Origin: a virus
Strand: one strand, 5' to 3'
IMG/VR virus record: IMGVR_UViG_3300010430_000022
Location: 10,466 to 74,465 of that record
Length of the DNA: 64,000 nucleotides
Shown here: piece by piece, positions 24,592 through 63,498 of the stretch
Layout of the letters: each line of letters begins with the position of its first letter
Numbering within the stretch: the first letter of the stretch is position 1
Translations under genes and position numbers: made by a program
Notes under the pieces: generated by a model
Database searches by the model: none
The model's input: the letters and a program-made list of their open reading frames with translations, nothing else
What the model was told of the DNA's origin: nothing

Positions 24592-26280
24592 GTGTATCAA
24601 GCACATACGCTACTGATCCTCGAAGACCTACTTGGGTCTCGGACCTTTCGTCGACTCATCGAGGGCAAAGACCCTGCGCCTGATCCCGAGCGCCAGTCGC
24701 GCCCGGTCATTCCTCCACATCTCCGCACGAGCCATGAGGAGGACACGCACCCAGCGATGAAGCTGCCGGGCCACAAGTTCCCTCAAGCAGTGCATGACGT
24801 CGCGCACTCCATCAAGAAGGCTGGTGGACGCGCGATGATGGTCGGCGGCTACGTCCGCGATACGCTGGAGAAGCATTTCCATGGAGGGGACGAGCCCTCC
24901 AAGGACTACGACATGGAAGTCCATGGGATGCACCCAGATCACCTGGATAAGCACTTGGACTCCATCGGACGAGTGGACAGAGTCGGCAAGGCTTTCGGGG
25001 TGATGAAGCTCACACACAAGAAGCACGACTTTGACATCTCGATCCCCCGCCGAGACAACAAGGTCGGTAAGGGGCACAAGGGCTTCATGCCCGAGCCTGA
25101 TCCGCACATGACCATTGGCGAGGCTGGTCATCGTCGGGACTTCACCATGAACTCGGTGGCGATGGACCCACACACTGGGCATGTCTACGACCCGCACCAC
25201 GGCATCAAGGACATCAAGAGTCGGACGCTACGGGCTACAGACCCCAAAGCGTTTGCTGAGGATCCTCTGCGTATTCTGCGTGGCGCTCAGTTTGCCGCCC
25301 GCAAGAAGATGACGGTTCACCCACACACCATGAAGCTGATGCAGAACGCCGGGCACGAGCTAAAGGATCTGCCTCGTGAGCGTGTTGGTGTCGAGTGGAA
25401 GAAGCTTCTCATGAAGGGCAAGCACCCTGAGCACGGCCTAAAGGTCTTGCACGACTCGGGTGCGCTGAAGCATCTTCACCCTGAGCTTCATGCACTGACA
25501 GACCACCAACACGATCCGCACGATCACACGAAGGGCACTTCGTTTGAGCACACAGGTCGGGCACTGAGCCATGTTGTGCATGCGACTAAGGGGCTGCCCG
25601 ATGACTCTCGCGAATCGATCCACCACGCCACGCTGATGCATAACGTAGGGCGACCGGCAGGTACGGATGACCACGCTTCGGCTGGCTCAGCTATCTCTCG
25701 TTCTACTGGCAAGAGCCAGTTTGATCTGGAGAAGAACGTCGCCACCAAGACTCATAAGCTCGTAGGCGAGCACGGTGCTCCTCACGAGATTCACGAGGCA
25801 CACAAGCGCGGCGAGAACACAGACGCGCACATTCGCCATCTCGCTCACCGCCTAGGACCGTCGAAGCCAACGGCCCACGACGGCTCGTCTATTGGTGATC
25901 TTCTACACGTCGCTCACGCGTCACATGTGGCAGATGGTAGTGGTGACCCTCACCACGCTGGTGACTTCTTGCGCAAGCGTGCCAAGGCACTTGGGGTTCA
26001 CGACGGGCCTCAAGAGCGGCTTGTTACCGGCAAGCACCTGAAGGCAGATGGTGTCAAAGGCGGACGTCGTATGGGAAGAGCCTTGGACCACGCCCACCAG
26101 AGGCAGTTGGATGGTGATGTCACTACTCACGAGGAGGCGAAGAAGGCTGCACTCGATCACCTCGCACACCTCGAACGTGAAGAGGGGCCTGAACAAGGGA
26201 AGAAGCAGAAGGTCAATCGTCGTAAGAAGCCTCCATTGGCGGAGAACTACTCGCTCTACGCACGCGTCTTTAGTGCTTAG
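24592..26280 (+). CDS. cca: CCA-adding tRNA nucleotidyltransferase (class II), His-rich
   Basis: 'VGGYVRD', 'DYDME', 'RRDFTMNS', 'DPHHG..D', 'EDPLRILRGAQFAAR', 'ERV..EWKKLL'. Confidence 0.9.
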   Translation: MYQAHTLLILEDLLGSRTFRRLIEGKDPAPDPERQSRPVIPPHLRTSHEEDTHPAMKLPGHKFPQAVHDVAHSIKKAGGRAMMVGGYVRDTLEKHFHGGDEPSKDYDMEVHGMHPDHLDKHLDSIGRVDRVGKAFGVMKLTHKKHDFDISIPRRDNKVGKGHKGFMPEPDPHMTIGEAGHRRDFTMNSVAMDPHTGHVYDPHHGIKDIKSRTLRATDPKAFAEDPLRILRGAQFAARKKMTVHPHTMKLMQNAGHELKDLPRERVGVEWKKLLMKGKHPEHGLKVLHDSGALKHLHPELHALTDHQHDPHDHTKGTSFEHTGRALSHVVHATKGLPDDSRESIHHATLMHNVGRPAGTDDHASAGSAISRSTGKSQFDLEKNVATKTHKLVGEHGAPHEIHEAHKRGENTDAHIRHLAHRLGPSKPTAHDGSSIGDLLHVAHASHVADGSGDPHHAGDFLRKRAKALGVHDGPQERLVTGKHLKADGVKGGRRMGRALDHAHQRQLDGDVTTHEEAKKAALDHLAHLEREEGPEQGKKQKVNRRKKPPLAENYSLYARVFSA

Positions 26281-49420: not shown

Positions 49421-49977
49421 TAGCCACGCTTTGGCAACGCCCTAATCGTTCCGGTTAGGGGCAGGTGTCCGTGTTTGATCTTGCCTCCGACCTTACGAGG
49501 CACCGCAACACGATCTCCACGCTGCTGGGCCAGCAGATCGTTGCTCTGCACCGGCTTAGCTCCCGGCGCGTGCGAGATCGTGATGTGTGGGTGCTCCTTC
49601 TTCGTGAGGTGTTCGACACCTGAGACGCGAACAGCGTGGATCCCCATCTTCTCATCGTCAGCATGATGCGTCGCGTGGAGGTTCACTGTCTTCTTATGTT
49701 CCGGTGTGTTGTGGAACCGGTCGAGATCCTCTTGGGATGGGTCGTAGTTCAGCGTGACGTGATCGGCGGTTCGCGACTTGTACTTCGACGGGAAGTGCTG
49801 CGCCAACGCCTTCTTAGAGCCGTGGCTCAGTTCAAGCGCAAGATAGTGGCTGTCTGGGGAGTAGGGCGTTCCGCTAGCCGGCGCCGACTGTCGGTCAGAC
49901 TTCGTTCGACGCTCACGGGGCGTAGGCGTTCCGGTCCCAAAGCCTTCGATCAAGAGAGGTGTTCGGCGAAGATTCAT
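49417..49977 (-). CDS. 2H phosphoesterase (tRNA-ligase cyclic-phosphodiesterase-like), His-rich
   Basis: Two H-x-T motifs: 'DHVTL' and 'PHITIS...KPVQSNDLL'; N-terminus MNLRRTPLLIE. Confidence 0.8.
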   Translation of the reverse strand: MNLRRTPLLIEGFGTGTPTPRERRTKSDRQSAPASGTPYSPDSHYLALELSHGSKKALAQHFPSKYKSRTADHVTLNYDPSQEDLDRFHNTPEHKKTVNLHATHHADDEKMGIHAVRVSGVEHLTKKEHPHITISHAPGAKPVQSNDLLAQQRGDRVAVPRKVGGKIKHGHLPLTGTIRALPKRGY

Positions 49978-50642
49978 GAGGTTTTTGGCATCGATCCGGC
50001 AGATCCCCAGTGCTCGTCGTCGACGTGATGCAGCGTGTGCTTCACTCCGAGGTCACTGAGAACCTTCCTGAAGTGTTCAATGTGCTCGGGACGGTCGTCC
50101 CACATGTGAACGTGTTTGAGATGTGGGTGCTCTGAATGGAAACGCTTGAGCATGTGCCCCTTCCACTCAGCAGTCTTCATAGGCTTCTTCTTACCGTCCT
50201 GCGGAGGCTTCAGGAAGAGGTCGTGACCGTGCTTGTGTCCCCTCACCCCGAGCTTGTGCAGGGTATGAGACACAGCGTCTTGCATATCCGGCTTGGCGAC
50301 GCGTCCGGTCATGACCACGACTCTGCTATGCGGAGATGCTTTAGCGGCGTGATAGTTCTTGAGCGTGTGCTCGATTGGGTGCGTCTCGAACGGGTGACGA
50401 AGCGTCTTGTGGTCCCCCCACCAGTCACCAGGCTTGCTGCCTCGTGGATTCGTCCTGCTACGTGAGTGGTAGCGATAGAGATCCTTGTTCTGCGATGTTG
50501 GCTCAGGCGTCCTGGCCAGGGTGCCGTCCATGTCGAAGATGTGGAGGTGTTTCGCATTGCGAGACTCAATGAGGAGCGCAACCTCCTCTGCTCGGATGGC
50601 CTCAAGAATCGGGCTGATTGCTCGAATGGTGCGACTTCTCAT
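49974..50642 (-). CDS. HAD phosphatase (RNA-repair / Pnkp 3'-phosphatase-like), His-rich
   Basis: 'IFDMDGTLARTP', 'WW', 'MTGR', 'LFLKP', 'WK', 'WDDRPEH'. Confidence 0.85.
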   Translation of the reverse strand: MRSRTIRAISPILEAIRAEEVALLIESRNAKHLHIFDMDGTLARTPEPTSQNKDLYRYHSRSRTNPRGSKPGDWWGDHKTLRHPFETHPIEHTLKNYHAAKASPHSRVVVMTGRVAKPDMQDAVSHTLHKLGVRGHKHGHDLFLKPPQDGKKKPMKTAEWKGHMLKRFHSEHPHLKHVHMWDDRPEHIEHFRKVLSDLGVKHTLHHVDDEHWGSAGSMPKTS

Positions 50643-50992: not shown

Positions 50993-52261
50993 ATGACGCA
51001 AGGTAAACCGAAGATGAGTCGTGCGGCGCTACGATGCGGCTCTGTAGCTGTGAGTGTGCTCAAGCCGGGCACTAAACGCTATGAGCGGTGGTTGGCCAGG
51101 CGAAACCGCCGCCGGGCTGCGACCATGCGGAAGAAGCAAGAAGAGGACACCATGTTCGAGGAGCGAGAAGCTGACAAGACCGGGGCGCTCACCTGCGGCG
51201 TCTTCCTCCCGCTCCCCTATGACCTCGCCAAGGACTTCCCGGATAAGAGCGAGCACGACGACTCGGTGCCGCACTACACACTGCTCTTCGTGGGCCCTTG
51301 CACCCCTGCGCAGTTCAAGACGCTTGTCATGGTCATTCGAGGTGTTGCGGTCAAGTTGAAGCCATTCCCTATGGACCTTGCCTCCTACGGCGAGTTCATG
51401 AACAAGGAGGGAATGAAGATCTCCAACATGGGGCCTAGCTTGATCGCTCGATTCCGAATGGCGGCTCTTCACGGCATACTCCGACGCGCCGTCGAGTCGC
51501 TGGCTAAAGGGGTCACGGTGAAGCACACCTACGGACCTGGAGAGTCGAAGTCGATCCCATACGAAGCCCAGTTCAAGCCTCACGCGACCCTGGCTTACCT
51601 TCCGCGCATGATGCCCTACCGAGGCCCGAAGCCAACTGGTAGTTGGAACGTCACTGAGCTTGAGGTCTGGGGCCACGAGAAGGTCCGGATCCCGCTCGGC
51701 AAGACCCTAGCGCGCCAGCCTATTGGCCTGACGCGTGATCCCATCAAGTTCGATTACCCCATGGCCGTCCCTGAGGTCTCGACTGGCAAAGGCAAGGGCA
51801 AGCCCAAGCTGGAGGACAGGATTCCTGGTGGTCTGGCCGATAATTCCGGCCCCGACGATTTCGACCCCAAGCAACTCGCGAAGGGCGTCAAGGTCGAGTT
51901 GGAGCACACCAGCAGCCGCGCCATTGCTACAGAGATCGCCATGGATCATCTGAAGGAGGACCCTCGCTACTACTCCAAGTTGGAGAAGATCCATACCGAA
52001 AGCACGTCGTCGGGCAACATCGCTGCGCCAAACGTGAAGAAGTGGGGAGAGGCGTTCTTGCGCGAACCGCTGCACCTGCGAGCACGCAGCGGAGATCCAT
52101 TCCTCCAGGGAGAGGATGTGGTCGGCGGCTCCATGGGTGCCATGGGTAAGGGGGTCGGTGGCTCCAGTGGGGATATCGGTCTCGACGGATCTCTGCCCTA
52201 CCTAGAGGTGCAGAAGCAGATCGACAAGAAGCTGCGCCGGAAGAAGCTCAAGGGCCTGTAG
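50993..52261 (+). CDS. 2H phosphoesterase fused to a DUF5661-like domain
   Basis: 'PHYTL' and 'PHATL'; 'QLAKGVKVELEHT...IAMDHL.EDPRYYSKL'. Confidence 0.75.
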   Translation: MTQGKPKMSRAALRCGSVAVSVLKPGTKRYERWLARRNRRRAATMRKKQEEDTMFEEREADKTGALTCGVFLPLPYDLAKDFPDKSEHDDSVPHYTLLFVGPCTPAQFKTLVMVIRGVAVKLKPFPMDLASYGEFMNKEGMKISNMGPSLIARFRMAALHGILRRAVESLAKGVTVKHTYGPGESKSIPYEAQFKPHATLAYLPRMMPYRGPKPTGSWNVTELEVWGHEKVRIPLGKTLARQPIGLTRDPIKFDYPMAVPEVSTGKGKGKPKLEDRIPGGLADNSGPDDFDPKQLAKGVKVELEHTSSRAIATEIAMDHLKEDPRYYSKLEKIHTESTSSGNIAAPNVKKWGEAFLREPLHLRARSGDPFLQGEDVVGGSMGAMGKGVGGSSGDIGLDGSLPYLEVQKQIDKKLRRKKLKGL

Positions 52262-52786: not shown

Positions 52787-54529
52787 ATGGCTAACAAGGC
52801 AGTTTTCGGTAGCGCACAGCGTGGCCGCAAGGTCCCCGAGACCGACACCAAGAACAAGGCCGGTGGCGTCGCGTACGCATTCGGTCCCCAGCACGCCCTG
52901 GCGCAGCTTGCCTGCACCGGAACCTTCAACGACACGTTCTACGGCAAGGCCGTCGACCAACTGGAGGGCATCCGCAAGGCCGCCGACCAGTGCTCGCCGG
53001 AGTTCATCGCTAAGTGTGCCGTCTACGCCCGTGAGCGTGGCTACATGAAGGACATGCCGGCCGCTCTGGCCGTCATCCTGTCCAAGGCCGATCCGGTTCT
53101 GTTGGACAAGGTCTTCGACCGGACCATCGACAACGGCAAGCAACTTCGGAACTTCGTCCAGTTCATCCGTTCGGGCGCCTTCGGGCGTAAGAGCTTCGGC
53201 TCCGGCCCGAAGCGGCTGATCGCACGCTGGTTCAACCAGCGCTCGGACGAGGCGATCTTCCGCGCTTCCGTCGGGAACTCCCCGTCGCTCGGTGACGTCC
53301 TCAAGCTGGCTCGCGTTTCGGGTAAGGCCGTTTCGCCACAGCGTCGTGCTCTCTACGGTTACCTGATCGGTTGTCGCGCTGCGGCTCTTGGTGAGGAACT
53401 GGAGCAGGTCACCAAGACCGAGGACGGCAAGACTCGTCGCACCAACCGCTTCAATCCAGCCGATCTCCCTGAGATCGTCAAGGGCTACGAGGCGTGGAAG
53501 CGCGGCGAGCGGACCGGCGAGGTCCCGAACGTCGACTTCCGGATGCTGACCGGCCTCCCGCTCACGCGTGAGGACTGGGTGCAGATCGCGAAGCGTGGTC
53601 GCTGGCACCAGACTCGGATGAACCTGAACACCTATGCTCGTCATGGCGTGTTCGAGATCACCGGCATGGAGGCAGTGATCGCCGGCAAGCTGAAGGATGA
53701 GGACCAGATCCGCAAGGCGAAGGTCTTCCCCTACCAGCTTCTCGCGGCCTACCTGAACACGGGTCCGGAGAACACCACTCCTGGCTACGGTGGCTACGGC
53801 TGGCGGCGTGCTCAGGTGACGGCGAAGCCTCAGGTCACGGTCCCCCAGAGGGTCCGCCTGGCGCTTCAGGACGCGCTGGAAGTCGCAACCGAGAACGTTC
53901 CTGCCTACGATGGCCGCGTTGCGGTCGTTGTGGACACGTCGGGCTCGATGCAGTCTTCGGTCACTGGTATTCGTCAGGGTGCTACCTCGAAGGTCACCTG
54001 TGTGGACGTTGCGGCCCTCGTGGCAGCGACGGTCATGCGGAAGAACCCTCTCGCGGTCGTCGTCCCAGTCGACACCCAGGTTCACCGGTCAGACATGCTG
54101 AACCCTCGGGACAGCATCATGACCAACGCGGACAAGCTCCGTCGCCTCGGCGGCGGTGGGACGGACCTCGGTGCCGCCATGCGGTTCATCGAGACCTCCA
54201 AGGCCGCGCCAGACCTCATCATCATGGTGAGTGACAACGAGTCGTGGTTCAACCCAGGTGGCGCGCGTCGCTACTACCAGGGGACGTCGGTGCAAGAGTC
54301 GTGGCAGCGGATCCGTTCGCGGAACCCCAACGCCAAGATGGTCTGCATCGACATCCAGGTTACGCAGAACACGCAAGCGCTCGACGGACACGGTGTCATG
54401 AACATCGGTGGGTTCTCAGACACGATCTGGAACACCATTTCACGGTTCGTCTCGAACGAGGGTCCCGAGACCTGGGTCGAAGAGATCAACTCTGTTGATC
54501 TCGACGCGCCCAAGCGGGTCAGGGGCTAG
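52787..54529 (+). CDS. rsr: Ro60/Rsr TROVE-domain RNA-binding protein with vWA domain
   Basis: AGGAGGT RBS; 'N.AGG.AY', 'TGTFNDTFY', 'MKDMPA', 'RMNLNT..RHG', 'FPYQL', vWA 'DTSGSM', 'GGGTD', 'SDNESW', 'IGGFSD'. Confidence 0.93.
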   Translation: MANKAVFGSAQRGRKVPETDTKNKAGGVAYAFGPQHALAQLACTGTFNDTFYGKAVDQLEGIRKAADQCSPEFIAKCAVYARERGYMKDMPAALAVILSKADPVLLDKVFDRTIDNGKQLRNFVQFIRSGAFGRKSFGSGPKRLIARWFNQRSDEAIFRASVGNSPSLGDVLKLARVSGKAVSPQRRALYGYLIGCRAAALGEELEQVTKTEDGKTRRTNRFNPADLPEIVKGYEAWKRGERTGEVPNVDFRMLTGLPLTREDWVQIAKRGRWHQTRMNLNTYARHGVFEITGMEAVIAGKLKDEDQIRKAKVFPYQLLAAYLNTGPENTTPGYGGYGWRRAQVTAKPQVTVPQRVRLALQDALEVATENVPAYDGRVAVVVDTSGSMQSSVTGIRQGATSKVTCVDVAALVAATVMRKNPLAVVVPVDTQVHRSDMLNPRDSIMTNADKLRRLGGGGTDLGAAMRFIETSKAAPDLIIMVSDNESWFNPGGARRYYQGTSVQESWQRIRSRNPNAKMVCIDIQVTQNTQALDGHGVMNIGGFSDTIWNTISRFVSNEGPETWVEEINSVDLDAPKRVRG

Positions 54530-55022: not shown

Positions 55023-55160
55023 GGTCCCAAATGCCTGTAGGAAGTACATCCACTCCAACAACGTGGACGTAGCTCAATTGGCAGAGCGCCGGGTTAATAG
55101 CCCGGAGGATGTGGGTTCGAATCCCACCGTCAAATTCTTTCTGCGCTACTCGTTGGGGCC
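55023..55160 (+). ncRNA. Y-RNA-like element B containing a near-complete tRNA module (AAT loop)
   Basis: GGTCCCAAATGCC..TACATC [tRNA-like] ..CTACTCGTTGGGGCC. Confidence 0.75.
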
Positions 55161-55420: not shown

Positions 55421-55835
55421 GGGGACGACATGGCTTCGACTGGCTGTGGAAATCTCAAGTGCGTGTCGAGGTTGATCGAATGGCCTCGTTAAAAGTCGAT
55501 CACAACGCTAACTGCCAACGCAACTAGCACCCCAGAGTGGCTCTCGGACGATGCCCTCGCCAGCTTCATGGCTGACGTGGACGCGCCCGTGGCCGCACTC
55601 GTCTAGCACGAGACTCTCTCGACCTGATCCCCCGCCCATGGGGTGACGTGTTCGAGCCACAAGATGGGCTTTAGCCGGACCTGATCCTCGTCGGGAAAGG
55701 CCAAGAACAAACAGAGGAAGCCGAGTTCCCATCATTGCTCACCACAAGGGGACGGGTACATAACCGGGTGAGATACACACGTAGATCTTGAGCCAGAAGT
55801 AGTTCAGGACCCGAGTTCGATTCTCGGCGTCTCCA
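55421..55835 (+). ncRNA. ssrA: tmRNA
   Basis: 5' GGGGACGAC..GGCTTCGAC; 3' GAGTTCGATTCTC..CGTCTCCA with G3:U; pk1-like region, TAACT then tag ORF 55514-55606. Confidence 0.93.
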
Positions 55836-56080: not shown

Positions 56081-56141
56081 GAAAGAGTGCTGTGGTGGCA
56101 GGCGCGCAAGCGTCGTGAGGTTCGACTCCTCGACTCTTCCT
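56081..56141 (+). ncRNA. Mini tRNA mimic without an anticodon
   Basis: AAGAGT/ACTCTT stem; GGCGC-GCAA-GCGTC; GAGG-TTCGACT-CCTC. Confidence 0.5.
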
Positions 56142-56176: not shown

Positions 56177-56273
56177 ACCGGCGAGACCAGACGTCGCCTT
56201 GATTGGGCTGCCTCCTCCCCCTTGGCCGCCCTCCGGAAATCGAGGAGCGCGGGTGCGACTCCCGTCGCCGGCA
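56177..56273 (+). ncRNA. Degenerate tRNA-like RNA
   Basis: CCGGCG/CGCCGG stem; T arm GCGGG-TGCGACT-CCCGT; irregular middle. Confidence 0.3.
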
Positions 56274-58687: not shown

Positions 58688-58768
58688 CCGTCTGGGGTCC
58701 ACCAAGTGGTGGTGCCGCGCTGTAAACGCGGTCTTTCGAGCAACGTGGTGCGATTCCACGCAGGCGGA
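58688..58768 (+). tRNA. tRNA-Tyr(GTA)
   Basis: CCGCG-CTGTAAA-CGCGG; long variable arm. Confidence 0.75.
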
Positions 58769-58776
58769 TTACACAT

Positions 58777-58844
58777 AGGTCGCGATCTAGGATCGGGCTG
58801 GATTCCAAATCCGGCCTTGCAGGGTGCGATCCCCTGGCGGCCTG
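58777..58844 (+). tRNA. tRNA-Trp(CCA), reduced D arm
   Basis: CTGGA-TTCCAAA-TCCGG. Confidence 0.7.
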
Positions 58845-58959
58845 ACTGAAAGAAGATGAGCCTCGGCTCTACATCTCGGTGTCGAACACTCGTGTCGGCA
58901 TCTAGCCCTGTAGGACGAAGCGATTCAGACGTCACTTGCCCTTTCACAATTCGGTGCTT

Positions 58960-59042
58960 GCCAGTCTGGCGGAACAGCAGACGCGCTACTTTCAAAAGGT
59001 AGTGTCCTTCGGGGCGTCCGGGTGCAAATCCCGGGACTGGCA
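58960..59042 (+). tRNA. tRNA-Leu(CAA)
   Basis: CTACT-TTCAAAA-GGTAG; long variable arm. Confidence 0.88.
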
Positions 59043-59047
59043 TTAAC

Positions 59048-59116
59048 TCGGCTGAATGCCAGCTACGACTACATCTTCCAAATATGACATGTCGTGGCGA
59101 CTCACTCGTCAGTCGA
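59048..59116 (+). ncRNA. Y-RNA-like element D (minimal; TTCCAAA loop)
   Basis: TCGGCTGAATGCC..CTACATC..CACTCGTCAGTCGA. Confidence 0.7.
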
Positions 59117-59122
59117 ACACAC

Positions 59123-59196
59123 GCTGCCGTAGCCCAACTAGCAGAGGCGTCTGGTTCAGAACCAGAAGGTTGGAGGTGCAAATCCTCTCGGCAGCA
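59123..59196 (+). tRNA. tRNA-Leu(CAG), short variable loop
   Basis: TCTGG-TTCAGAA-CCAGA. Confidence 0.8.
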
Positions 59197-59200
59197 AAGA

Positions 59201-59272
59201 GCAGGAGGACGGTGGTGCAATTCCACCCGACTGGCGGAAGTCGGTCTGTAGTTCAGTAAGAAGAACACCTGC
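59201..59272 (+). ncRNA. Circularly permuted tRNA-like RNA
   Basis: GCAGG - T arm GGTGG-TGCAATT-CCACC - closed acceptor CGACT/AGTCG - D arm - CCTGC. Confidence 0.6.
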
Positions 59273-59276
59273 GTTT

Positions 59277-59360
59277 GCCACTGTGATGGAACTAGCAGAC
59301 ATGCCTGCCTCAGAAGCAGGTGCCTTAACGGGCGTGGGGGTGCAAATCCCTTCGGTGGCA
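59277..59360 (+). tRNA. tRNA-Leu(CAG)
   Basis: CCTGC-CTCAGAA-GCAGG; long variable arm. Confidence 0.88.
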
Positions 59361-59361
59361 T

Positions 59362-59434
59362 AGCGGAATAGAGCAGTAGTAGCTCGCGAGTTTCATAAGC
59401 TTTGAGGACGTCGGTGCGAATCCGGCTTCCGCTA
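59362..59434 (+). tRNA. tRNA-Met(CAT)
   Basis: AGCGGAA/TTCCGCT; loop TTCATAA. Confidence 0.8.
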
Positions 59435-59444
59435 AAACAACCAC

Positions 59445-59527
59445 GGTCCCGTGGTGGAACAGCAGACACGCAACATTGAGGGTGTTGTGCTCGAAAGAGC
59501 GTGCAGGTGCAAATCCTGTCGGGACCA
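59445..59527 (+). tRNA. tRNA-Leu(GAG)
   Basis: CAACA-TTGAGGG-TGTTG; long variable arm. Confidence 0.88.
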
Positions 59528-59529
59528 TC

Positions 59530-59612
59530 GACCGAATGCCAGTTGTGACTACATCAACTGAAAACTGATGCTGGGGGAACCCAGCGCTCGTCACGGCATA
59601 CACTCGTCGGTC
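59530..59612 (+). ncRNA. Y-RNA-like element E (CTGAAAA loop)
   Basis: GACCGAATGCC..CTACATC..CACTCGTCGGTC. Confidence 0.72.
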
Positions 59613-59624
59613 ACAATTCAACGA

Positions 59625-59697
59625 CGCGTCCTAGAGCAACGGTAGCTCGCGAGCCTCATAAGCTCTGAGGATTCTGGTTCGATTCCAGAGGACGCTA
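59625..59697 (+). tRNA. tRNA-Met(CAT), unpaired C1
   Basis: Loop CTCATAA; canonical GG and TTC. Confidence 0.85.
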
Positions 59698-59698
59698 T

Positions 59699-59773
59699 CG
59701 CGGAGTGGAGCAGTCAGGTAGCTCGGTGGGCTCATAACCCGCAGGTCACGAGGTTCGAATCCCGTCTCCGCTA
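59699..59773 (+). tRNA. Initiator tRNA-fMet(CAT)
   Basis: C1 mismatch; GGG/CCC anticodon stem. Confidence 0.88.
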
Positions 59774-59891
59774 TACAAGCCTGTGAAGACCACCTTGCGC
59801 AGGCAGGGGCTAATCTCACCAGTGGTGGTCACGAACGAGATTCTGGATCTGGTTTTGGTAGCCGTGCGGCTACGAGGGCGCAGATCCGCAC

Positions 59892-59962
59892 GGGGCCCTG
59901 GTGAAACAGGATCACACTTGTCTGGCAGACAAGAGTTAGGGGTGCGACTCCCCTGGGCTCCA
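59892..59962 (+). tRNA. tRNA-Ala(GGC)
   Basis: G3:U70; CTTGT-CTGGCAG-ACAAG. Confidence 0.88.
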
Positions 59963-59967
59963 TACAC

Positions 59968-60039
59968 GCTCCTGTAGCTTAGGCAGCAGAGCACATCCTT
60001 GGTACGGATGAGACCCCAGTGCAAGTCTGGGCAGGAGCT
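59968..60039 (+). tRNA. tRNA-Thr(GGT)
   Basis: CATCC-TTGGTAC-GGATG. Confidence 0.85.
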
Positions 60040-60106
60040 TGGGTCGGCCTCTAGGATCATGGGGCATGTCAAGGGGGTCAATGCCACCCCCGACCAGAAC
60101 ACACAT

Positions 60107-60179
60107 AGCGTGTGGGCCATACGAGTGCGGCACACCTTTCATACGGGTGAGATACCGGGTGCAAGTCCCGGACACGCTA
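60107..60179 (+). tRNA. tRNA with CAT anticodon (Met or Ile2)
   Basis: CACCT-TTCATAC-GGGTG. Confidence 0.75.
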
Positions 60180-60211
60180 TCAGACGAACCGGTTGATCGC
60201 CGGGGAGTCGG

Positions 60212-60317
60212 TGAGGATTAGTGGACTAACAACTACGTCGAAGCTGGACGCGGTAGGTCGGTTGACTCTGAATCAGCAGGTGCGGGTGAGGGCGGCAGCC
60301 CAATGCCCGCCCCTCAT
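60212..60317 (+). ncRNA. tRNA-Gln(CTG)-like RNA with D-arm and T-loop insertions
   Basis: GTTGA-CTCTGAA-TCAGC; T stem GCGGG/CCCGC enclosing an extra hairpin; TGAGG/CCTCA. Confidence 0.5.
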
Positions 60318-60318
60318 T

Positions 60319-60391
60319 GGATCCGAAGCTAAACGAGTGAAGCACCCGGTTCTTACCCGGGGGATACAGAGTGCAATTCTCTGCGGATCCA
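60319..60391 (+). tRNA. tRNA-Lys(CTT)
   Basis: CCCGG-TTCTTAC-CCGGG. Confidence 0.85.
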
Positions 60392-60406
60392 TCAGTTGAA
60401 CTATCT

Positions 60407-60479
60407 GGATCGGTAGCTCAGCCAGTAGAGCACGAGTCTGAAGAACTCGGAGTCGGGGGTGCAAATCCCTCCCGGTCCA
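60407..60479 (+). tRNA. tRNA-Phe(GAA)
   Basis: CGAGT-CTGAAGA-ACTCG. Confidence 0.88.
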
Positions 60480-60482
60480 TAC

Positions 60483-60555
60483 CAGGGATTAGTGTTTAAC
60501 AGCAGCACGAGGCATTTGGGATGCTTTAGTCGAGGTGCAACTCCTCGATCCCTGA
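60483..60555 (+). tRNA. tRNA-Pro(TGG)
   Basis: AGGCA-TTTGGGA-TGCTT. Confidence 0.85.
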
Positions 60556-60559
60556 TTAA

Positions 60560-60633
60560 CGGAGCGTGGCGCAGTCTAGTAGCGCGCTGGTCTGGGGGAC
60601 CAGAGGTCGCAGGTGCAAATCCTGTCGCTCCGA
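60560..60633 (+). tRNA. tRNA-Pro(GGG)
   Basis: CTGGT-CTGGGGG-ACCAG. Confidence 0.9.
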
Positions 60634-60689
60634 TTGGAACGCGAGCGGTCAGCCGAGGTGCTGATCGGCCCTAGTGGCTTCCAACGCAA

Positions 60690-60760
60690 GGATTCGTGGT
60701 GTAACAGAAGCATAGGACCCTGAAAAGGTCGCGGCAGGGGTGCAAATCCCTTCGAATCCA
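60690..60760 (+). tRNA. tRNA-Phe(GAA), second copy
   Basis: GACC-CTGAAAA-GGTC. Confidence 0.8.
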
Positions 60761-60890
60761 TTCGTCGAATGCCAGGTAGGACTACATCATTTGGTTCGAG
60801 TCCAATCTGCTCCTTCGGGAGTTAGCCCCGTGGCGGGGACATCGACCTCACGGTCGGTGGATTGATCGTCCGCCAACTCTCGTCGACGAA
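60761..60890 (+). ncRNA. Y-RNA-like element F (YrlA-type permuted tRNA module)
   Basis: TTCGTCGAATGCC..CTACATC; T arm TTGG-TTCGAGT-CCAA; TTCG-closed stem; D-like arm; ..CTCTCGTCGACGAA. Confidence 0.78.
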
Positions 60891-60893
60891 CAC

Positions 60894-60965
60894 CGGTCTA
60901 TGGTGAAACAGTTATCACGCGTCTCTGATAAGGACGAGTTCTAGGTGCGATTCCTGGTAGACCGA
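60894..60965 (+). tRNA. tRNA-Ile(GAT)
   Basis: CGTCT-CTGATAA-GGACG. Confidence 0.85.
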
Positions 60966-60969
60966 TTTT

Positions 60970-61043
60970 GGCCATGTAGCTCAGATAGTCAGAGTACCGC
61001 CCTGTCACGGCGGGGGTCGGGGGTGCGAAACCCCTCATGGTCG
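60970..61043 (+). tRNA. tRNA-Asp(GTC)
   Basis: CCGCC-CTGTCAC-GGCGG; G73. Confidence 0.88.
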
Positions 61044-61044
61044 T

Positions 61045-61098
61045 CGGGTGAATACGAAAGTGGTGAGAGCCCACGCAGGTGAGATCCCTGCCATCCGT
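61045..61098 (+). ncRNA. Truncated tRNA-like RNA
   Basis: CGGGTG/CATCCG stem plus GCAGG-TGAGATC-CCTGC T-like arm. Confidence 0.35.
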
Positions 61099-61102
61099 TT
61101 AT

Positions 61103-61175
61103 GGTCCTGGAGTTCGTGTAGCAGAATAGCCGCCTGTCGAGCGGAAGGTTGTGGGTGCAACTCCCATCAGGACCG
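61103..61175 (+). tRNA. tRNA-Asp(GTC), second copy
   Basis: CCGC-CTGTCGA-GCGG; G73. Confidence 0.8.
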
Positions 61176-61242
61176 TTTGGAAGCCCAGACCGGGCTAGTC
61201 TTTCTGGCTGGAACAGCCAGCCCCAAGACCGGTGAGGGAACC

Positions 61243-62082
61243 ATGGGAACGCTAGAAGAGGCCGCGAAGGTAATCGAGGAGGCAGACGCTCTCCTCATAA
61301 CGACCGGCGCAGGAATGGGAGTCGACTCAGGACTCCCCGACTTCAGAGGGAGCCAAGGCTTTTGGAAGGCTTATCCGCCCTACAAGAAGCTGAACGTGTC
61401 CTTCTCCGAAATGGCGAGCCCGGATTGGTTCAAGAAGGACCCTGAGTTCGCTTGGGGCTTCTACGGCCAGAGACGCAACCTCTACCGGGTGACGGAGCCG
61501 CACAACGGCTACGCGATCCTCAAGAGGTGGGCCGAGGAGAAGCCGAAGGGCTACTTCGCGGTCACGTCGAACGTCGACAACGCCTTCCAGAAGGCCGGCT
61601 TTGACGCGTCTCGAATCGCTGAGGTGCATGGGACCATCGAATGGAATCAGTGCATGACCTTCTGCGGCGCCAGGATCACTCCGGCAGGCCCAGAGGAGAT
61701 TGAGGTCGACACAGGGACAATGAGGGCCTCAGGGGCCCTACCAACGTGTCCTGGCTGCGGTGAGGTCACGAGGCCGAACATCATGATGTTCGGGGACCCC
61801 TACTTCGACAAGAAGCGTCAGGAGGAGCAACTCGAACGCTTCTACGCGTGGCTCAAGGAACTCAAGACAGGCGAGGCCGACCTCGTCGTAGTCGAGTGTG
61901 GAGCCGGGGTTGAGATCCCGACGATCAGAGACATCTCCGACCAGATCGGAATCGACGAATGTGGAGGAACCCTGGTGAGGGTGAACCCAGTCCACTCCCG
62001 AGCGCGGTGGGGCAGTCATGTCAGCCTGCACTTCGGGGCGCTTGAAGCCTTGGAAGGGATCGAGCAAGTGATCGCAGTTTGA
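61243..62082 (+). CDS. Sir2-family (sirtuin) NAD-dependent enzyme
   Basis: 'GAGMGVDSGLPDFRG', 'TSNVD', 'EVHG', Cys pairs, 'RPNIMMFGD', 'ECGAG..IPTIR', 'RVNP'. Confidence 0.92.
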   Translation: MGTLEEAAKVIEEADALLITTGAGMGVDSGLPDFRGSQGFWKAYPPYKKLNVSFSEMASPDWFKKDPEFAWGFYGQRRNLYRVTEPHNGYAILKRWAEEKPKGYFAVTSNVDNAFQKAGFDASRIAEVHGTIEWNQCMTFCGARITPAGPEEIEVDTGTMRASGALPTCPGCGEVTRPNIMMFGDPYFDKKRQEEQLERFYAWLKELKTGEADLVVVECGAGVEIPTIRDISDQIGIDECGGTLVRVNPVHSRARWGSHVSLHFGALEALEGIEQVIAV

Positions 62083-62149
62083 ACACACGCGGGTTAGCCC
62101 CGCATGAAGGTCTCTTCGCCGCCCTCGGGAGGCGTTGAGACTGAGCATT

Positions 62150-62223
62150 GGCCCTATCGTCTAGTCTAGTTAGGACGTCAGCCTCTCAAGCTGAAAACCC
62201 GGGTGCGAATCCCGGTAGGGTCA
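62150..62223 (+). tRNA. tRNA-Glu(CTC)
   Basis: TCAGC-CTCTCAA-GCTGA. Confidence 0.9.
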
Positions 62224-62231
62224 TCAGTTTT

Positions 62232-62303
62232 CCCTCTATAGCTTATGAAGTAGAGTTCCCGCCTGTCACGCGGAGGAACCGAGTGCAAGTCTCGGTAGAG
62301 GGG
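62232..62303 (+). tRNA. tRNA-Asp(GTC), third copy
   Basis: CCGC-CTGTCAC-GCGG. Confidence 0.8.
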
Positions 62304-62339
62304 TCTTGTGGGGAAGGGGTGAAAGCCCTGACCCTGCTT

Positions 62340-62411
62340 GCAGGTGTAGCTCAGTAGTAGAGCGTCACGTTGCCAACGTGAGGGCCGTCGGTGCGAATCC
62401 GATCACCTGCT
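62340..62411 (+). tRNA. tRNA-Gly(GCC)
   Basis: TCACG-TTGCCAA-CGTGA; U73. Confidence 0.9.
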
Positions 62412-62415
62412 TCAC

Positions 62416-62488
62416 GCGGTCGTAGTGTTTAACAGCAGCACGCGAGCTTGCCATGCTCGAAGTTGGGGTGCAACTCCCCACGACCGCT
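62416..62488 (+). tRNA. tRNA-Gly(GCC), second copy
   Basis: CGAGC-TTGCCAT-GCTCG. Confidence 0.88.
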
Positions 62489-62491
62489 TCT

Positions 62492-62563
62492 GCTTCCATA
62501 GTGTCAACAGCAGCACGACTGTTTCGTAATCAGTTAGTCTCGGTGCAACTCCGGGTGGAAGCT
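62492..62563 (+). tRNA. tRNA-Thr(CGT)
   Basis: ACTG(T)-TTCGTAA-(T)CAGT. Confidence 0.82.
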
Positions 62564-62693
62564 TTCAGCGAATGCTTTGGTAGGAGTACATCCTGACTGA
62601 TAATCAAGACGACTCGGGCGCAACTCCCGGGGCCCCCACTACGAGGGGGTGCGTAGTGCTAGTAAACCCTCTTGCCTACTACTCGTCGCTGAA
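62564..62693 (+). ncRNA. Y-RNA-like element G (permuted tRNA-Ile(GAT)-like module)
   Basis: TTCAGCGAATGC..TACATC; TGA-CTGATAA-TCA; T arm; GCCCCC/GGGGGT closed acceptor; ..CTACTCGTCGCTGAA. Confidence 0.78.
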
Positions 62694-62697
62694 CCAA

Positions 62698-62769
62698 GGA
62701 CCCGAAGCATAAGCAGTGATGCACTTGGCTCTTAACCTTGGGAATGGGGTGCAAGTCCCTGCGGGTCTA
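62698..62769 (+). tRNA. tRNA-Lys(CTT), second copy
   Basis: Loop CTCTTAA; GGACCCG/CGGGTCT. Confidence 0.75.
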
Positions 62770-63498
62770 TCCAGCCTTACGCTCAGACGTGTCGATTGAC
62801 TGGATCGAGTGCTTCAGGCCGTGAAGGGCGCTGTTGTCACTGTGCTCCTTCTCCCAGGGCGCCTTGAAGGCGCCCTCCTTATCGAGGGCCTTGAACGGCG
62901 TCGGGTGATCCTTCAGGCTGTGCAGCTTTTCAGCGAAACTGTCAGCTTCCTTCTTCATGCCACCGAGGCGCTTCGCGCTCTCGTCGTCCTTCGGGAAGTG
63001 AGCCCCGCGCTTACGGATCTGATCGAGGGGAGCGTGGAAGTGGGTCACCTTCACATGGTAGCCATGCTTGGCTGCGTGGTGCAGGTAAGGCTTCATCTGC
63101 CAAGCCGCCGTGTTCGTGTTGTCCACGATGACGTGCGGGTGACCAGCAGCCATGTGCTCCGCAGCTTGCTGCTGAGCATGGGCATGAGCCTCGCCGAGCT
63201 TGCTCGGATCAAACGAGGGAGTGCCGCCGGGCTTGTCCGGAGGACCGTAGAGTCCTGGGTGCTTGTCGGCTGAGACCACAGCAGCGCCCGAGTGGTGCTT
63301 TGCGATGTGAGTCGACTTGCCTGACCCAGGTGCGGCGACCATGAAGTGAAGCACCTTCTTTTGCGCAGGCGACGGCTCGTCTGCCTCAAGGAACGGTGAG
63401 TAGACCGCCTCCTGGAGGTTTCGGACATACTTGTCCCGTCGAATGGATTCAACGAGAGGAAGGGTGCGGGAGCGACGGATACGGTCGTGAAGGTTCAT
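62767..63498 (-). CDS. P-loop polynucleotide-kinase-like protein (AAA_33 / N4BP2-like), His-rich
   Basis: 'AAPGSGKST', 'VSAD', 'FDPSKLGEAH', 'VIVDNTN..WQMKPY'. Confidence 0.85.
   Translation of the reverse strand: MNLHDRIRRSRTLPLVESIRRDKYVRNLQEAVYSPFLEADEPSPAQKKVLHFMVAAPGSGKSTHIAKHHSGAAVVSADKHPGLYGPPDKPGGTPSFDPSKLGEAHAHAQQQAAEHMAAGHPHVIVDNTNTAAWQMKPYLHHAAKHGYHVKVTHFHAPLDQIRKRGAHFPKDDESAKRLGGMKKEADSFAEKLHSLKDHPTPFKALDKEGAFKAPWEKEHSDNSALHGLKHSIQSIDTSERKAG

Follow-up and report, generated by a model that had tools for sequence, protein, structure and literature searches.

G18 in the D-loop and U55 in the T-loop, the latter as pseudouridine (Psi), are among the most invariant nucleotides of transfer RNA (tRNA), and the elbow contact between them is treated as universal in textbooks. 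Here we describe a phage array of 26 tRNA-like genes in which most members have G55 together with A18. The array occupies 4.1 kb (positions 58688-62769), all on the plus strand, of a 64,000-nucleotide stretch of DNA (the window), which constitutes the final 64 kb of the 74,465-base IMG/VR virus record IMGVR_UViG_3300010430_000022 (CheckV completeness 26%). The tRNAs of the window share with the canonical family (Rfam RF00005) the cloverleaf, the T54-A58 and G19-C56 pairs, a purine at position 57 (R57) and the identity elements; 24 of the 26 genes depart from its canonical G18 G19/U55 C56 signature.

T-loops with a G in their second position are known from riboswitches. In flavin mononucleotide (FMN) and cobalamin riboswitches, a mutational and phylogenetic study found the T-loop consensus to be UGNRA or YGNRA, about 80% of the loops being UGNAA, and contrasted it with the UUCRA loop of tRNA; the base intercalated between loop positions 4 and 5 is an adenosine in 99.96% of cases and is held by two hydrogen bonds to the sugar edge of the position-2 G (bioRxiv 10.1101/2022.12.26.521914). 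The G55 tRNAs resemble this loop in having TGCRA, a higher proportion of A57 and an A at position 18. They differ from it in that their partner base is supplied by the D-loop along with G19, which pairs with C56.

In gene organization, the array resembles L-arrays such as the trn operon of Anabaena PCC 7120, which are horizontally transferred and for which a joint action with RtcB under translational stress has been discussed (PMC8421152). Like them, G55 arrays consist of dozens of tandem accessory tRNAs on mobile DNA that are redundant with the housekeeping set; position 18, position 55 and the T-loop are not mentioned in that work. Comparable clusters of tandem same-strand tRNAs with a transfer-messenger RNA (tmRNA) also occur in other giant phages, for example Caulobacter phage CcrColossus and the uncultured 595-kb phage LR756511.1. 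Their tRNAs, however, have TTC with GG (15/15 and 51/55, respectively), whereas 24 of the 26 genes in the window have G55, with A18. Being a giant phage does not by itself entail the A18/G55 design.

Searches of the region with ARAGORN and Rfam RF00005 returned the tmRNA, two upstream tRNA-like genes and 24 to 25 tRNAs at 58960-62769, all on the plus strand. Two further tRNA-like genes (58688-58768 and 58777-58844), called by neither program, were read from the sequence and have cloverleaf-like folds. A scan for T-arm hairpins found 31 on the plus strand between 55111 and 62745, compared to 7 in the remainder of the window on both strands, a clustering that is far from chance.

An earlier note on this DNA, made from its letters alone, had counted 24 of 26 tRNAs with T-loops starting TGC. 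We registered each gene from its 3' end to assign the T-loop position and obtained exactly this number: the T-loop reads TGC(A/G)A.. in 24 genes and TTCGA.. in two (59625-59697 and 59699-59773), both of which are Met(CAT) genes with C1 opposite U72. The replacement of GG by AG, claimed for most D-loops, applies to 22 of the 24 G55 genes, which are all those with a normal D-loop (A18 G19), and the Rfam covariance-model alignments agree, placing an A under the model's G18 and retaining G19. D-loops such as AGTAGTA, AGCCAGTA, AACAGTTA and GAACAGCAGA thus stand beside AGTGGTA, AACGGTA and GAACTGGCAGA in canonical tRNAs. The rest of the elbow is preserved, with T54, R57 and A58 in 24/24 G55 genes and G19 and C56 kept. 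In the whole-window scan, 22 of the 24 G55 genes passed the Rfam gathering score, and a 23rd, Leu(CAA), passed it in a regional scan with 46 bits. Overall, 23 of the 24 G55 genes scored 29-67 bits, whereas canonical tRNAs in the genomes we checked reached about 75 bits (62-75 for the top 30). CCA is encoded by none of the 26 genes, as judged from the three bases 3' of each.

The same note held that the two C1-mismatch Met tRNAs, the tmRNA and the tRNA module of what it called Y-element B keep GG and TTC. TTC is confirmed for the Met pair, which has GG as well, and for the tmRNA; the tRNA-like gene at 55063-55135 has GG and TTC and the hairpin at 56116 has TTC. One correction applies: the hairpins at 56249, 57794, 59211 and 62614, outside the tRNA genes, carry G55.

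For evidence of covariation beyond the window, we searched IMG/VR for each combination of positions 18 and 55 while keeping one common D-arm/T-arm context constant. A18 with G55 was found at 51 loci and G18 with U55 at at least 118, while A18 with U55 and G18 with G55 were both absent. As 50 of the 51 A18/G55 loci came from a single group of ~87-kb phages, with one odd tRNA-like gene each, they do not constitute independent support, and we therefore switched to searching for two neighbouring G55 T-arms. This yielded 86 IMG/VR stretches, drawn from many metagenomes, as well as at least 120 stretches of assembled bacterial and archaeal genomes; about 70 of the latter contained real arrays, the others being chance matches without tRNAs. 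We pooled the ARAGORN predictions from the window, the 86 IMG/VR stretches and 120 genome stretches into a set of 1,408 unique tRNAs.

Among the viral loci and the window, 367 tRNAs combined TGC with AG and no GG, 266 combined TTC with GG, and none combined TTC with AG only. The 44 TGC tRNAs whose D-loop does contain GG have it out of register (e.g. AGGAGTA, CAGGA). When a register rule was applied to the pooled set, 811 tRNAs were G55/A18, 379 were U55/G18 and 3 were G55/G18 exceptions; three apparent U55/A18 cases proved to be CAGGTA loops miscalled by the rule. Because related sequences can mimic covariation, we masked the D-loop together with positions 55 and 57, built a tree for each isotype and took independent contrasts. 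In 38 supported contrasts from 17 isotypes, A18 went with G55 in essentially all and never in the opposite direction (sign test 7e-12). Further, same-isotype pairs of U55 and G55 tRNAs with up to 91% identity differ jointly at 18 and 55. In the window itself, the D stem GAGC/GCTC is common to the CAT genes at 59362-59434 (A18/G55) and at 59625-59697 (G18/U55), whose anticodon arms are similar. The covariation of A18 with G55 is thus independent of shared ancestry. It strongly supports what the earlier note had proposed, a compensatory A18-G55 pair extending across isoacceptors: the two positions co-vary both in the IMG/VR scan and in the pooled set, and the coupling of G55 with A18 and of U55 with G18 is found in phage and in bacterial arrays. 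State changes on the tRNA trees were nearly as numerous as in shuffles and trees from 70 nucleotides are unresolved; for this reason, we claim no number of origins.

The pooled set contains a second tertiary covariation, of A54 with T58 (40 G55 and 9 U55 tRNAs), which swaps the reverse Hoogsteen pair. T54 is present in 91% and A58 in 95% of the pooled tRNAs, and C54 and A54/T58 variants occur among them, as in other T-loops.

Structurally, the inner elbow contact G18-U/Psi55 would be replaced by A18-G55, and the T-loop would thereby be converted from the tRNA-specific UUCRA form with an intercalated G to the general UGNRA form, in which an intercalated adenosine bonds to the sugar edge of the G. 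Riboswitch T-loops are usually locked by UGNRA plus an intercalating adenosine, so that the change is reasonable on structural grounds. A57 is found in 47% of the G55 tRNAs but in 19% of the U55 tRNAs of the pooled set (p 2e-25), an enrichment that matches the UGNAA preference of riboswitch T-loops. On the simplest reading, a generic T-loop lock has taken the place of the inner layer of the elbow, with an A18-G55 geometry that is predicted by analogy. The parts that are kept are T54-A58, the purine at 57 and the outer G19-C56 pair, on which the ribosome, RNase P and similar readers stack; their retention implies that the L-shape should be preserved.

The G55 genes have the hallmarks of decoding tRNAs. 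ARAGORN and Rfam fold them with a 7-bp acceptor stem, a 5-bp T stem and 7-nt anticodon and T-loops, and 7-nt anticodon loops with U33 are the rule among them. By the identity rules established for E. coli tRNAs, the elements are kept: G3:U70 in Ala, C1:G72 with A73 in both Pro genes, G73 in 3/3 Asp and U73 in 2/2 Gly genes. Long variable arms are present in three Leu genes, and one tRNA with anticodon CAG has a short variable loop. The cloverleaf is under purifying selection: across the Pro(GGG) gene (60560-60633) and its nine G55 relatives, from 10 contigs in all, 15 of the 23 stem pairs show compensatory changes, and AG, TGC and the anticodon loop are invariant. The anticodons of the array also fit the most frequent codon in 22 phage open reading frames (ORFs) for 10 of the 11 amino acids with a choice of codons (Ala, Asp, Glu, Phe, Gly, Ile, Lys, Leu, Thr, Tyr), Pro being the exception. 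In the pooled set, the G55 tRNAs comprise 877 unique sequences and all 20 isotypes. We rejected the possibility of pseudogenes or decayed copies in view of the kept stems, the identity elements and the conservation, the nearest relatives in other contigs being G55 tRNAs of the same isotype with up to 88% identity.

We put at roughly 70% the probability that the 24 G55 genes are, as predicted from their sequences, working elongator tRNAs with an A18-G55 elbow that serve phage translation. The phage encodes a CCA enzyme, and the tRNAs would be used in translating its own genes. Several observations weigh against this reading. U8 is missing from 6 of the 24 G55 genes and two have aberrant or reduced D arms, so that a minority may be tRNA-like RNAs rather than decoders. 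Ser is almost absent from the G55 tRNAs of the pooled set, with 5 compared to 31 among U55 tRNAs. TruB, which modifies U55, is present in 4/5 array-bearing genomes, so that independence from TruB is not forced. Finally, homologues of a Ro60-like protein encoded in the window occur at 14/95 G55-array loci and at 0/118 canonical control loci (p 7e-6), but the link falls to p 0.02 when only the 33 controls with at least five tRNAs are considered, and the controls were not taxon-matched.

The same six genes without U8 and two aberrant D arms could be taken to mean that the G55 genes are not decoders at all but tRNA mimics, acting as decoys, substrates or partners of the Ro60/Y-RNA system. The Ro60 gene lies upstream of the array, which is interspersed with Y-RNA-like genes whose T-arm modules are G55, and in the separate ~87-kb phage group the one A18/G55 tRNA-like gene has an anticodon loop of non-standard form. 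Against this stand the isotype-specific identity elements, the 7-nt anticodon loops with U33, the anticodons that track the codon preference of the phage, the representation of all 20 isotypes and the anticodon stems that co-vary, and we consider this explanation very unlikely.

Leu, Cys, Gly and Pro are enriched among the pooled G55 tRNAs.

The tRNAs of the window are closest to those of an IMG/VR contig (L226), whose capsid protein is 34% identical to that of the window, and to those of contigs binned with metagenome-assembled genomes (MAGs) of Planctomycetota, which gives a weak hint at the host. Array-bearing assemblies belong mostly to Verrucomicrobiota, Planctomycetota and Myxococcota and include two cultured isolates, Verrucomicrobium sp. 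BvORR034 (L366) and Archangium lansingense MIWBW (L287). Among cultured phages, a megablast search with the tRNA array had no match, and the blastn matches (CcrColossus, Rhizobium phage RHph_I1_6, Actinomycetia phage DSL-LC01), whose similarity is that of a generic tRNA-Pro, were all canonical with TTC/GG. The A18/G55 design was thus found in no cultured phage among the blastn and megablast matches, nor in LR756511.1, the record with the closest capsid protein.

If the hosts' own tRNAs carried G55, the phage might simply copy them. Consistent with this, TruB_N (PF01509) had no match in 48 of 81 sampled genomes (G004-G085) of the phylum of the MAG that contains array locus L351, titled Planctomycetota, which is the phylum of the nearest relatives of the window tRNAs, whereas 14/14 controls were matched; TruB is either widely lost in this phylum or diverged beyond the model. 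Yet in a TruB-less genome of the phylum (G007), 32 of 33 tRNAs are canonical. The 5.2-Mb Nibricoccus MAG (G001) has about 46 dispersed canonical tRNAs (TTC in 29/30 checked) in addition to two low-scoring G55 clusters. The initiator-type genes of the phage, moreover, match canonical host-like elbows in both designs. Mimicry of the host is rejected for the two genomes checked and is, in general, highly improbable. With host housekeeping tRNAs canonical in both, A18/G55 emerges as a design of accessory or mobile arrays, to which the 26 tandem same-strand genes on the phage contig and the additional G001 arrays conform. Arrays holding both elbow designs are common. The two Nibricoccus arrays (G001:C1:2388337-2392275 and 2424987-2431077) are ~33 kb apart and may flank an integrated element; a TROVE gene lies inside L306.

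Initiator-type tRNAs mostly keep the canonical elbow. In G55-dominated arrays, 20 of the 47 leftover U55 genes are Met(CAT), the largest part. Met(CAT) genes with a C1 mismatch are U55 in 12 and G55 in 2 cases, compared to 12 and 18 for those with a paired 1:72 (p 0.008). This suggests a constraint that is specific to initiation. The initiator-type tRNA-Met of the window (59699-59773) is 90% identical to the sole U55 tRNA of another array locus (L299).

The sparing of initiators also bears on whether the elbow confers any advantage. As the UGNRA lock is common in other RNAs, A18-G55 might be no more than a second stable solution, with a few origins and no special advantage, which mobile arrays propagated through duplication, switches of anticodon and horizontal transfer. 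The D arm is identical in Pro(TGG) at 60483 and Gly(GCC) at 62416 and nearly so in Thr(CGT) at 62492, which shows duplication with a change of anticodon, and the frequency of mixed arrays would fit as well. Neutral spread does not readily account for the canonical state of housekeeping tRNAs (32/33 and 29/30 TTC), even though G55 arrays may reside on the same chromosome, for the scattering of the state over the isotype trees with many switches, for the selective sparing of initiators, or for the non-random association of the arrays with Ro60 and repair genes. We regard it as quite unlikely.

This association extends beyond Ro60. In a Pfam analysis of the 149 ORFs nearest to G55 arrays, TROVE ranked first (11), followed by HNH endonucleases, RlaP (4), vWA_Ro60 (2) and RtcB (1), and arrays adjoin TROVE, RlaP and RtcB genes in several phyla. 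The window fits this pattern, with a Ro60-like protein, a HAD 'Swiss Army Knife' phosphatase, a LigT-like protein, an AAA_33 kinase, a CCA enzyme and interleaved Y-RNA-like modules. A tblastn search with the CCA enzyme, kinase, HAD and Sir2 proteins of the window against the G55-array loci gave no match.

Such repair genes invite the idea that the elbow evolved mainly to hide accessory and phage tRNAs from a tRNA-cleaving nuclease (tRNase) that reads the T-loop or elbow and stems from the host, a competitor or the phage itself. Such an enzyme has a precedent in CdiA-CT E479, which cuts between the conserved T and Psi of the T-loop (PMC9086364). The tRNA end-repair genes and CCA enzyme of the window phage, the TROVE, RlaP and RtcB neighbours of other arrays, and the confinement of the design to accessory arrays in canonical hosts are all in agreement with escape from cleavage, and the repair-gene context would suit an arms race in which tRNA is damaged and mended. 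Against it, no array-linked nuclease gene was found, the neighbouring genes are circumstantial evidence, and initiators remain canonical, though they would be exposed to a general T-loop tRNase as well; nuclease escape as the main driver is unlikely, if by no means far-fetched. In phage T5, tRNAs reportedly escape anticodon nucleases through changes in the anticodon loop (work of 2023). The logic is the same, in that phage tRNAs are altered at a site read by an enzyme, but in the window the change is at the elbow, takes the form of a compensated pair and has no known nuclease.

A broader proposal would have the A18-G55 tRNAs form an orthogonal, damage-proof pool, immune to a widespread class of elbow- and T-loop-directed tRNases and mobilized as a translation-rescue module with Ro60/Y-RNA and RNA repair. 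The tRNases could come from host defence, from bacterial competition or from the phage's own shut-off of the host, and initiators would be left out, as it is the canonical elbow that initiation factors read. We consider this proposal doubtful. The reading that we prefer, tentatively and while judging it somewhat unlikely, is that the elbow is favoured since it needs no Psi55 and is no substrate for T-loop-directed enzymes, which would provide a damage-resistant back-up pool next to the Ro60/Y-RNA and repair genes. Modification independence and resistance to a nuclease that recognises the elbow or T-loop had been put forward in the earlier note as candidate reasons. The presence of TruB in most of the array-bearing genomes noted above is inconsistent with TruB loss as a general driver; some hosts may benefit when pseudouridylation is not needed, but this does not explain the design in general.

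The earlier note had guessed that similar variants may already be known from other tRNA arrays. They are indeed common in the arrays of the databases, but we found no description of natural A18/G55 tRNAs in the full-text literature, subscription journals being outside its coverage, and the design is apparently undescribed. Hundreds of tRNAs that are predicted to be functional and cover all 20 amino acids use a strictly compensated alternative to a near-invariant elbow contact. Should they prove to be charged and used, it would follow that the elbow of tRNA comes in two interchangeable designs, that TruB and possibly further readers of the T-loop have a natural class of non-substrates, and that tRNA finders as well as surveys of viral tRNAs assign too low a score to a large class of genes. 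A18/G55 would also offer a testable handle on the purpose of accessory tRNA arrays and a ready-made orthogonal elbow for engineering.

The individual genes, all on the plus strand and called by both ARAGORN and Rfam unless stated otherwise, are as follows. The array opens with the two genes read from the sequence. The Tyr-like gene (GTA, 58688-58768) has a long variable region and the T-loop TGCGATT (G55 at 58750); its fold has acceptor, anticodon and T arms and an atypical D arm, with a stem of 5 bp and a loop of 4 nt, in which positions 18 and 19 are unassignable. The Trp-like gene (CCA, 58777-58844), supported by sequence and fold, has the D arm GAUC-UAG-GAUC with a 3-nt loop and the T-loop TGCGATC (G55 at 58826). 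They are followed by the class II genes for tRNA-Leu CAA (58960-59042, D-loop GAACAGCAGA), CAG (59277-59360) and GAG (59445-59527), all with A18 G19 and TGCAAAT. Between the first two lies the tRNA whose anticodon, CAG, is that of Leu but whose short variable loop gives it a class I shape (59123-59196, 57.7 bits); it also has A18 G19 and TGCAAAT. The first CAT gene (59362-59434) has a paired 1:72, the D-loop AGTAGTA (A18) and TGCGAAT. The two canonical tRNA-Met genes, both CAT with C1 opposite U72, have the D-loop AACGGTA (G18 G19) with TTCGATT (59625-59697) and GG with TTCGAAT (59699-59773); the latter is of the initiator type, with a GGG/CCC anticodon stem.

Next are tRNA-Ala GGC (59892-59962), with G3:U70, the D-loop AACAGGA (A18 G19 G20 by register) and TGCGACT, and tRNA-Thr GGT (59968-60039), with A18 G19 and TGCAAGT, which has 85% identity to a G55 Thr(GGT) gene in locus L184. 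A further CAT gene, of elongator Met or Ile2 type (60107-60179, ARAGORN), has G8, AG in the D-loop and TGCAAGT. tRNA-Lys CTT (60319-60391, Rfam 52 bits) has A8, the D-loop AACGAGTG (A18 G19) and TGCAATT. There are two tRNA-Phe GAA genes, both with TGCAAAT, the first (60407-60479, Rfam 62.6 bits, A under G18) with the D-loop AGCCAGTA (A18 G19) and the second (60690-60760) with AACAGAA. They enclose the two tRNA-Pro genes, TGG (60483-60555, TGCAACT) and GGG (60560-60633, TGCAAAT), each with C1:G72, A73 and A18 G19.

tRNA-Ile GAT (60894-60965) combines the D-loop AACAGTTA with TGCGATT. The three tRNA-Asp GTC genes, all with G73, have AGATAGTCA and TGCGAAA (60970-61043), GTGTAGCA and TGCAACT together with G8 (61103-61175), and ATGAAGTA and TGCAAGT (62232-62303). 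tRNA-Glu CTC (62150-62223) has AGTCTAGTTA and TGCGAAT. Both tRNA-Gly GCC genes have U73; the first (62340-62411), with AGTAGTA and TGCGAAT, has the top Rfam score (67.5 bits, A under G18), and the second (62416-62488) has A18 G19 and TGCAACT. The array ends with tRNA-Thr CGT (62492-62563, A18 G19, TGCAACT) and a second tRNA-Lys CTT (62698-62769, Rfam 37.2 bits), with A8, the D-loop AAGCAGTG and TGCAAGT.

Some of these forms recur elsewhere. Minimal D arms with 3- to 5-nt loops that retain AG are seen in several G55 tRNAs, including the Trp-like gene (UAG) and genes at L299:347-414 and L351:4534-4604; in L299 and L351, the D-loops GAG, CAG and AGGA accompany G55 T-loops. The CAG family in which the variable loop is short and the D stem has 3 bp, represented here by 59123-59196, is widespread in these arrays (L275, L284, L269, L223), in U55 and G55 versions, and some of its members have C33 in the anticodon loop. 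The ~87-kb phages (L001-L051, IMG/VR, mostly from sample 3300045988) have small canonical tRNA clusters plus the one odd tRNA-like gene. This gene (e.g. L002:1092-1168) is A18/G55, encodes CCA and has a 6-bp anticodon stem with the loop GAAGNNT, the middle bases of which differ among phages.

Several T-arm hairpins of 17 nt each lie on the plus strand outside the tRNA genes, starting at 56116 (TTC), at 56249, 57794 and 59211 (TGC) and at 62614 (CGC), and are probably tRNA-like modules of Y-RNA-like genes. A motif, GAATGCCAG...GACTACATC, recurs between the tRNAs, and hairpins and motif together look like Y-RNA-like genes interleaved with the array. Between two tRNA genes, at 60762-60892, there is a weak match to YrlA (RF02553) of 26.8 bits, below the gathering score of 69.

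The DNA of the window was seen in marine-sediment metagenome runs only. Its genes include a portal, a head protease, a T4-type major capsid protein and a ribonucleotide reductase (PHROG/Pfam), and the top match of the capsid protein among cultured or deposited phages is LR756511.1, with 33% identity. From this origin, capsid match and gene content, we conclude that the window is a piece of an uncultured giant phage. On the plus strand, upstream of the array, are the CCA-adding enzyme (24592-26280; PHROG 2244, E 1e-64; Pfam PolyA_pol), a protein with a LigT/2H phosphoesterase region (50993-52261, Pfam), which is an RNA-repair gene, and the Ro60-like protein (52787-54529; vWA_Ro60 and TROVE in Pfam; PHROG 850). 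Another RNA-repair gene, the HAD_SAK_1 phosphatase (49974-50642, Pfam), is on the minus strand, as is the polynucleotide-kinase-like AAA_33 kinase (62767-63498; Pfam, E 1.3e-16) that adjoins the last tRNA. A Sir2-family gene (61243-62082, plus strand; PHROG 2162, E 3.7e-48) lies within the array; a peptide-pattern search of IMG/VR found no close relatives of its product. The tRNA-like gene at 55063-55135 (plus strand; ARAGORN, Rfam), with canonical GG and TTC, has the anticodon AAT and two acceptor mismatches. It is followed on the same strand by the tmRNA (55421-55835; ARAGORN, Rfam 130 bits, hairpin scan), which has the canonical T-loop TTCGATT (at 55816) and encodes an unusually long tag of 30 residues, ending in ...AALV.

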